From Escherichia coli (lineage in GTDB: Bacteria; Pseudomonadota; Gammaproteobacteria; Enterobacterales; Enterobacteriaceae), in assembly GCF_050320075.1 (NCBI RefSeq), contig NZ_CP190018.1: a DNA stretch of 64,000 nucleotides, one strand, 5' to 3'. The notes under the pieces were generated by a model. It did no database searches and was not told the origin of the DNA. It saw nothing but the letters and a program-made list of their open reading frames with translations. Of this stretch, positions 20,212 through 20,670 are shown piece after piece; positions within the stretch are counted from its first letter, which is position 1, and every line of letters begins with the position of its first letter. The position numbers and the translations under genes are program-made.

Positions 20212-20298
20212 AAATAAAAAAACCTGCTGGTGAGGCAGGTTCTTTTATTTACTATTTTCAGGCCCAACACCGCAGCCTGTGCAACATCGTGTTCCAAC
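20212..20298 (-). ncRNA. orzO: Candidate OrzO-like antitoxin sRNA
   Basis: Minus-strand promoter (-10 TATAAT as rc of 20305-20310, 17-nt spacer, -35 TTGCAA 20328-20333). Terminator hairpin 20221-20241 followed by U-run on the minus strand. Its 5' 20 nt are complementary, with one mismatch, to 20445-20464 in the zorO leader. Confidence 0.5.
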
Positions 20299-20327
20299 GA
20301 ACGAATTATAACCATCGGTGGACCCCG

Positions 20328-20355
20328 TTGCAATTAAGATAATGAGATTTATAAT
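20328..20355 (+). promoter_or_regulatory. Candidate sigma70 promoter of zorO
   Basis: -35 TTGCAA (20328-20333), 16-nt spacer, -10 TATAAT (20350-20355). Predicted TSS near 20363 gives a ~174-nt leader. Confidence 0.5.
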
Positions 20356-20536
20356 CCAGACGGTTGGGACGTTGCGCCGGATCGGACCAATTTTAAGTCC
20401 TGGCTACCGGACGGGTGGTGCTGCAGGTGGTGCCCTGATCCGGAGTGCAACATCGTGGTCCAACATACGTAAACCAGTATCGACAGGCAGTGTAAGGGTA
20501 AGGTGCTGGTGTTGCGCTCCTTAATAAGGAGAGCGG

Positions 20537-20626
20537 ATGGACACGCTGACACAAAAGTTAACCGTGCTCATTGCCGTACTGGAGCTATTAGTGGCTCTGT
20601 TACGGTTGATTGATTTGTTGAAGTAA
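20537..20626 (+). CDS. zorO: Type I toxin, 29-aa hydrophobic peptide (ZorO-like)
   Basis: Hand-translated MDTLTQKLTVLIAVLELLVALLRLIDLLK. AAGGAG sits 5 nt upstream of ATG. Matches recalled ZorO of E. coli O157 and resembles DinQ/TisB-type peptides. Below the ORF-track cutoff. Confidence 0.65.
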   Translation: MDTLTQKLTVLIAVLELLVALLRLIDLLK

Positions 20627-20644
20627 TGGGCAAATTGAAACGCA

Positions 20645-20670
20645 TCTAAGGGGGAATACCGTTTCCCCCT
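20645..20670 (+). terminator. Intrinsic terminator after zorO
   Basis: Hairpin aagggggaa-tacc-gtttccccctt followed by a T-rich tract. Lies just 3' of convergent yehK. Confidence 0.5.

Follow-up and report, generated by a model that had tools for sequence, protein, structure and literature searches.

The zor-orz type I toxin–antitoxin system of E. coli was predicted in 2010 and proven in 2013–14, its leader mechanism was dissected in 2016–17, and it was surveyed in 2024. The experimentally characterised pair is zorO-orzO (z3289) of strain EDL933. Overproduction of ZorO arrests growth and OrzO rescues it, a process in which RNase III is needed and Hfq is not (PMC3919570). In EDL933, an 18-nt segment at the start of OrzO is enough for repression (PMC3919570). 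The full-length zorO leader inhibits translation, and the processed delta-28 form is active. In both forms, the ribosome-binding site (RBS) remains within a stem. Processing makes the EAP region accessible; this region promotes translation and is the site at which OrzO binds (PMC5397157). ZorO is located in the inner membrane, where it causes depolarisation and damage, and it increases the level of hydroxyl radicals (PMC6669753). The survey of 2024, based on 2,212 E. coli genomes, covered copy number, variants, single-copy strains and orphan antitoxins (PMC11264685).

The systems tisB-istR1, shoB-ohsC and dinQ-agrB also have a divergent sRNA with approximately 18–20 nt of complementarity to a long structured 5′ UTR. 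They likewise have an inactive primary transcript, activation by 5′ processing, and a standby-like site that is the target of the sRNA. Their peptide and RNA sequences are unrelated to those of zor-orz, and they occupy other loci. The tisB and dinQ genes are SOS-controlled, and we know of no SOS control of zor. The dinQ leaders of plasmids match part of the zor leader at 71–74%, a similarity for which no relationship has been established (PMC11264685).

The window analysed in this study is a stretch of 64,000 nt of E. coli DNA. We are highly confident that its positions 20216..20671 contain a zor-orz type I toxin–antitoxin module in a single copy, complete and apparently functional, at the canonical site between yehL and yehK. 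It is an already known system at its usual site and in one of its common configurations. The module is 100% identical to that of E. coli strain M217.

Toxin gene and leader

The toxin gene zor was found in the ORF list at 20537..20626 on the plus strand and encodes a peptide of 29 aa, MDTLTQKLTVLIAVLELLVALLRLIDLLK. The peptide is residue-for-residue the same as the UniProt entry ZORO_ECO57 ('Small toxic protein ZorO', E. coli O157:H7) and as the synthetic full-length ZorO of Otsuka et al. (PMC6669753). ZorP is the T3S variant of ZorO (UniProt names; PMC11264685). The RBS of zor (AAGGAG, 20526..20531, plus strand) is located 5 nt before the ATG.

The promoter scan placed the zor promoter, TTGCAA-16-TATAAT, at 20328..20355 on the plus strand, with the −10 hexamer TATAAT at 20350..20355 (10/12 matches). 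The transcription start was assigned to 20363, 7 nt past the −10 hexamer, by homology, and the 5′ UTR would then span 20363..20536. With this start, the RBS falls at +164..+169, in agreement with published zorO (PMC5397157). The original prediction had described a hydrophobic 29-aa peptide with a strong Shine–Dalgarno sequence and a leader of approximately 174 nt, and it proved accurate on these points, the leader being exactly 174 nt from the inferred start. The 5′-end of the processed delta-28 form would lie at 20391, by homology with zorO.

The EAP region (+73..+102) corresponds to 20435..20464 on the plus strand, with coordinates transferred from the published leaders (PMC5397157, PMC11264685). 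The conserved GGAGTG described in the same papers is present at 20442..20447, just upstream of and overlapping the target box for Orz. The target box itself (+83..+102, 20445..20464, plus strand) was located inside the EAP region by its complementarity to the sRNA seed. In zorO, the Orz pairing site is retained in a delta-82 construct and so starts from +83 (PMC5397157, PMC11264685). The predicted full-length fold pairs the target box with +1..+14 of its own mRNA, and removal of the first 28 nt deletes this 5′ partner. In the same fold, a local hairpin pairs the RBS with +155..+160 and leaves it an unpaired probability of 0.07. These predicted folds reproduce the published logic of the zorO leader.

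The mRNA fold also revealed a 3′ hairpin at 20648..20671 on the plus strand, which has a 9-bp G/C-rich stem and a weak T tract and is presumed to be the terminator of zor. It fell below the T-run criterion of the terminator scan because of the poor T tract, and it is conserved in every copy compared.

Antitoxin RNA and its pairing with the leader

The antitoxin gene orz is of the OrzP type and was located at 20216..20298 on the minus strand from an Rfam hit and an inferred 5′-end. The match to the Rfam family OrzO-P (RF02083) covers 20216..20291 on the minus strand and the full length of the model (1-76), with a score of 101.3 bits (gathering score 60) and an E value of 1e-16. OrzO-P is one of just three Rfam families above threshold in the whole window. 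A second OrzO-P hit on the plus strand (20136..20246, 25 bits) is below threshold and was rejected, as it arises from the palindromic terminator. The 5′-end at 20298 was placed 6 nt past the −10 hexamer and with the help of the published 18-nt seed.

The orz promoter, TTGCAA-17-TATAAT, occupies 20333..20305 on the minus strand, with its −10 hexamer TATAAT at 20305..20310 (10/12 matches). A consensus scan found exactly two promoter-like sites in the spacer between yehL and yehK, back to back, and put both −35 elements on the same six bases (20328..20333). TTGCAA is its own reverse complement, so this hexamer serves as the −35 for both divergent promoters. The same TTGCAA and TATAAT hexamers are reported for at least 99% of zor/orz loci (PMC11264685). 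Since the −35 is shared, RNA polymerase may be unable to occupy the zor and orz promoters at the same moment. The parts of the zor-orz literature consulted contain no discussion of the shared −35 hexamer.

The 5′ seed of the sRNA (20279..20298, minus strand), which includes the V1 specificity box, is complementary to the target box at 20445..20464 in 19 of 20 positions. The duplex consists of 6 pairs, one A·G mismatch and 13 pairs, with a predicted energy of −30.8 kcal/mol. Dinucleotide-shuffled sequences (n = 300) gave a longest run of 10 on average and of 14 at most. According to the published rule, function requires 15 or more continuous pairs; with a single internal mismatch, 17 or more discontinuous pairs are enough (PMC11264685). 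The duplex of the window has 19 pairs in total, above the discontinuous limit, and a longest run of 13, below the continuous one. An RNAduplex calculation with the whole sRNA (−65.5 kcal/mol) was discarded, as it over-extends the pairing and ignores intramolecular structure, and the 20-nt seed duplex was used instead.

The sRNA ends in an intrinsic terminator (20216..20246, minus strand), which folds as a hairpin of 12 bp with the seven final U in its 3′ arm. The terminator scan caught the same palindrome on the plus strand at 20221..20241. The self-fold of the sRNA was not strongly better than that of shuffled sequences (z = −1.93) and is uninformative alone. A divergent sRNA of approximately 85 nt, with a 5′-end complementary to the interior of the leader and a hairpin plus U-tract at its 3′-end, had been proposed beforehand; it is confirmed here with a minor correction of its length to 83 nt (20298..20216).

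Allele type

The prediction of a ZorO/OrzO-like type I module between yehK and yehL is borne out by the identity of the peptide to ZorO, the OrzO-P score and the flanking genes. The similarity search suggested for the peptide and the sRNA likewise gave an exact match to ZORO_ECO57 and a hit above the OrzO-P gathering score. The ZorO/OrzO label needs a correction of subtype: the peptide has the ZorO sequence, but the seed and the leader box are of the OrzP/zorP type.

The window was compared with K-12 (L002), a two-copy O26 strain (L003), a two-copy close relative (L004), CFT073 (L005) and E2348/69 (L006). Three specificity types were distinguished, namely P (sRNA seed ...CATCGTGTTCCAAC, leader box ...CATCGTGGTCCAAC), O (seed ...CATTTCGTACCAAC, box ...CGTTTCGTACCAAC) and Q (seed ...CATGGCATCTCAAC, box ...CATGGCGACTCAAC). 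The assignment to O or P rests on UniProt names, the O26 two-copy locus and the published MG1655 Orz, which is 100% OrzP, with EDL933 itself outside the comparison set. The 20-nt seed of the window is the same as that of K-12 and of O26 copy 1, and its target box is that of O26 copy 1, which encodes ZorP. The window carries CGTGTTCC in the seed and CGTGGTCC in the target, and the O type has TTTCGTACC. By sequence, the sRNA/leader pair is thus of the OrzP/zorP specificity type, despite the ZorO peptide (Thr3).

The zorP-orzP copy of EDL933 (z3290) and the OrzPmg of MG1655 occupy the same genomic site, on the yehL side, with the same promoters and leader length as the window. The sRNA of the window differs from OrzP of K-12 and O26 at 2 nt, both in the small 5′-proximal hairpin. 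OrzP/zorP have exactly the same 20-nt seed and leader target box as the window, down to the single A·G mismatch. The window peptide has Thr3, the ZorO sequence, whereas ZorP of EDL933 and O26 has Ser3. The terminator loop and 3′ flank of the window also differ from zorP-orzP and agree with the yehK-side copy. In MG1655, nothing remains past approximately +30 of the leader.

The zorO-orzO copy of EDL933 encodes a 29-aa toxin identical to that of the window and shares with it the divergent architecture, the 174-nt leader, the RBS at +164..+169 and the position of the EAP region. The Rfam sRNA family, the terminator loop and the adjacency to yehK are shared as well. The two differ in the V1 region of seed and target alike, which is CGTG(T/G)TCC in the window and TTTCGTACC in the O type. 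Cross-pairing between the window and the O type is predicted to be weak (−17 to −21 vs. approximately −30 kcal/mol).

The zorQ-orzQ type (PMC11264685), represented by copy 2 of the close relative and by E2348/69, has the same architecture and site. Copy 2 of the close relative has the same 3′ flank as the window. The third specificity box of the Q type, GGCGACTC / GGCATCTC, is unlike that of the window, and the window peptide has Ala20, in contrast to the A20S reported to be common in ZorQ (PMC11264685).

The seed and the box co-vary among the O, P and Q alleles, with predicted energies of approximately −30 kcal/mol for cognate and −14 to −25 kcal/mol for non-cognate duplexes. The window seed gave −17 to −18 kcal/mol with the non-cognate O- and Q-type boxes (O-type −17.2). 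These weak predicted duplexes agree with the published inability of OrzP to repress zorO.

Origin of the single copy

The spacer was aligned with both copies of the two-copy close relative. From 20105 to 20460, all 104 of 104 informative sites follow copy 1. From 20657 to approximately 20753, all informative sites that match either copy follow copy 2. The stretch between them (20461 to 20656) holds five informative sites only, in a mosaic that does not allow a crossover to be placed. Judged by these sites, the single copy appears composite: its 5′ part resembles copy 1 of a related two-copy array and its 3′ part copy 2. One difference is private to the window: at position 20627, right after the zor stop, it has T for C (TAAT vs. 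TAAC), which is its sole private substitution relative to both copies of the close relative.

This pattern is what a two-copy array would leave on recombinational collapse within the conserved leader or CDS, and duplication from a single copy is compatible with it as well. In a collapse, the CDS and terminator of the yehK-side copy may have come under P-type regulation by the sRNA and the leader box. Orz may in addition have a second, toxin-independent role, insulating or regulating yehLMPQ or acting on trans targets. Recombination and a second role of Orz are both hinted at in the published survey (PMC11264685). Taken jointly, collapse of a two-copy array and a toxin-independent role of Orz make a combination that we regard as rather unlikely.

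Distribution and the K-12 locus

The spacer (20105..20679, 575 bp) lies between the yehL start at 20104 (minus strand) and yehK at 20680..21000 (minus strand), and it is 100% identical to those of strains M217 and 167. The module has the same yehK–yehL position in M217, O26, CFT073 and E2348/69. Matches to the spacer were found in 5232 of 5426 complete E. coli genomes, many with two places per genome, and 3393 genomes match at least 80% of it. According to the survey, 3% of genomes have no match, approximately 30% have orz only, 25% have one copy and 42% have two (PMC11264685).

K-12-type genomes match the first 292 bp only. The K-12 spacer is 306 bp (L002 1501..1806) and contains orz (Rfam 99.9 bits), both promoters and approximately 30 nt of the zor leader, and the toxin is absent. 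The deletion junction reads ...GGACCAATTT joined to GAATTATTTAGAGTATATT... As K-12 keeps orz and approximately 30 nt of the zor leader, K-12 is a deletion derivative and the present strain carries no insertion. The description of the module as 'inserted' between yehK and yehL was therefore misleading, given also the 5232 matching genomes. The remark made on K-12 is correct for the toxin half, which is gone, and incorrect for the sRNA gene and both promoters, which are kept. The orphan antitoxin of MG1655, OrzPmg, was detected by northern blotting and is 100% identical to EDL933 OrzP (PMC11264685).

A further rearrangement was observed in strain S1-INA-02-A (L008 748..1585), where IS1A stands in place of yehL to yehQ; its insertion has removed most of the module, orz included, together with the downstream yeh genes. 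The 85 bp of spacer left beside yehK correspond to query 208..292, the promoter region.

The phage collection gave no match to the module. Nine records of the plasmid collection matched, of which at least three are chromosome-sized and probably mislabelled; the others are listed at 181 kb to 1.4 Mb. The phage and plasmid collections thus provide no evidence for mobility of the module.

Neighbouring genes

The yehL gene (19027..20104, minus strand) is a pseudogene with an 11-bp deletion near 19750 relative to K-12 and CFT073 (K-12 ...GATCAAATCAAGTATGGCTGG...). It is split into ORFs 19649..20170 and 19027..19677 and is annotated as frameshifted in M217. The yehM gene (16737..19184, minus strand) has an in-frame TAG at 18345..18347 after codon 279, annotated as 'internal stop' in M217. 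In the yehLMPQ cluster (MoxR-like AAA ATPase, DUF5682, vWA, SWIM), two neighbouring genes are thus inactivated, and the toxin–antitoxin module beside them is intact. On the other side, yehK is annotated as frameshifted in CFT073 (L005 2132..2448) and E2348/69 (L006 2202..2518), and its position is taken by 'hypothetical' ORFs of differing size in L004 and L007. The genes that flank zor-orz decay repeatedly in different lineages.

Two intact yehI paralogs of 1264 and 1265 aa are present upstream of yehI at 24703..28497 and 28510..32307 on the minus strand. They are labelled 'WGR and DUF4132 domain-containing' and 'DUF4132 domain-containing' in M217, and in K-12 this region is the fragmented molR pseudogene. 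PADLOC gave zero matches for YehI, YehK, YehP, YehQ, the YehI paralog and K-12 YehL, and therefore gives no support for tying the module to a catalogued defence system. Two features ordinary for the region also scored above their Rfam gathering scores, namely the Hfq-binding sRNA STnc490 (51396..51519, plus strand, 143.9 bits) and a TPP riboswitch upstream of thiM (43353..43449, plus strand, 71.8 bits).

Integrity of the module and role of Orz

Decay around the module raises the question of whether the module itself is a non-functional remnant, like the toxin-less K-12 locus, in a region that may be degenerating as a whole. The adjacent yehL and yehM are already pseudogenes in this strain, and are annotated so in M217, and approximately 30% of E. 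coli are without the toxin half (PMC11264685). The module does not share this condition: both −35/−10 sets, the RBS and the 174-nt leader, the 29-aa ORF, the pairing of seed and box, and the two hairpins are intact and match the consensus. The peptide is the wild-type toxic ZorO sequence (PMC6669753), and the substitution at 20627 falls after the stop. We therefore consider a decayed remnant very improbable.

It could also be argued that Orz acts chiefly on targets other than zor, or as a terminator or insulator upstream of yehL, with toxin repression secondary. An expressed orphan OrzP with a conserved promoter is kept in approximately 30% of E. coli, including MG1655, and the authors of that survey suggested functions beyond toxin repression (PMC11264685). 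The orz gene is on the strand of the yeh genes, and its strong terminator is located 112 bp upstream of the yehL start. The literature knows no other Orz target, in EDL933 Orz needs only its 5′ seed to repress (PMC3919570), and allele-by-allele co-variation of seed and box is expected if zor is the selected target. Such a primary role of Orz outside the module has hardly any likelihood in our estimation.

A chance small ORF with chance complementarity, or an amino-acid operon leader or attenuator in place of the sRNA, is refuted by the OrzO-P score, a complementarity above every shuffle and the identity of the peptide to a characterised toxin (ZORO_ECO57). The hits over the sRNA to Thr_leader (26.3 bits; gathering score 55) and to Trp_leader (21.7 bits; gathering score 41) both stay far under threshold and come from the terminator hairpin, against 101 bits for OrzO-P. 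The observation of a zor-orz module is real, with chance ruled out, and the analysis establishes the presence, integrity and positions of its elements, their family membership and their complementarity.

Proposed mechanism

We infer from zorO-orzO of EDL933 that the same steps would operate in this allele with P-type pairing. Two back-to-back sigma-70 promoters with one palindromic −35 would fire in opposite directions. Rightward transcription would produce the zor mRNA with its 174-nt leader and, from it, the 29-aa inner-membrane peptide, an excess of which would depolarise and damage the membrane. Leftward transcription would produce the 83-nt Orz sRNA. The full-length zor mRNA would be poorly translated, with its RBS in a hairpin and its EAP/standby region paired with the mRNA 5′-end. 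Loss of the first 28 nt would expose the EAP region and permit translation. The 5′-end of Orz would pair with +83..+102 in the EAP region and lead to a translation block and RNase III-dependent decay. In the parts of the zor-orz literature consulted, rescue is demonstrated for OrzO on zorO, and no rescue experiment for a P-type pair was found.

Significance of the module

Earlier papers describe the architecture, the mechanism, the variation in copy number and the K-12 orphan (PMC3919570, PMC5397157, PMC11264685). The module therefore has little weight as a discovery, and the refinements made here (the P-type box with a ZorO peptide, the K-12 orphan and the deletion) add precision and no novelty. 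Its practical value is for annotation. RefSeq/PGAP leaves the spacer unannotated in every genome inspected, and the module can therefore look new to a reader of the raw sequence. NCBIfam has no model for the 29-aa peptide, which is why the peptide is missing from annotation. A toxin gene and an sRNA gene are thus missing from thousands of records.

For the biology of the family, the module illustrates how allele-specific seed/box pairs prevent cross-talk between tandem toxin–antitoxin copies. If the single copy did arise by recombinational collapse, specificity boxes and toxin cassettes would be reshuffled by unequal crossover.
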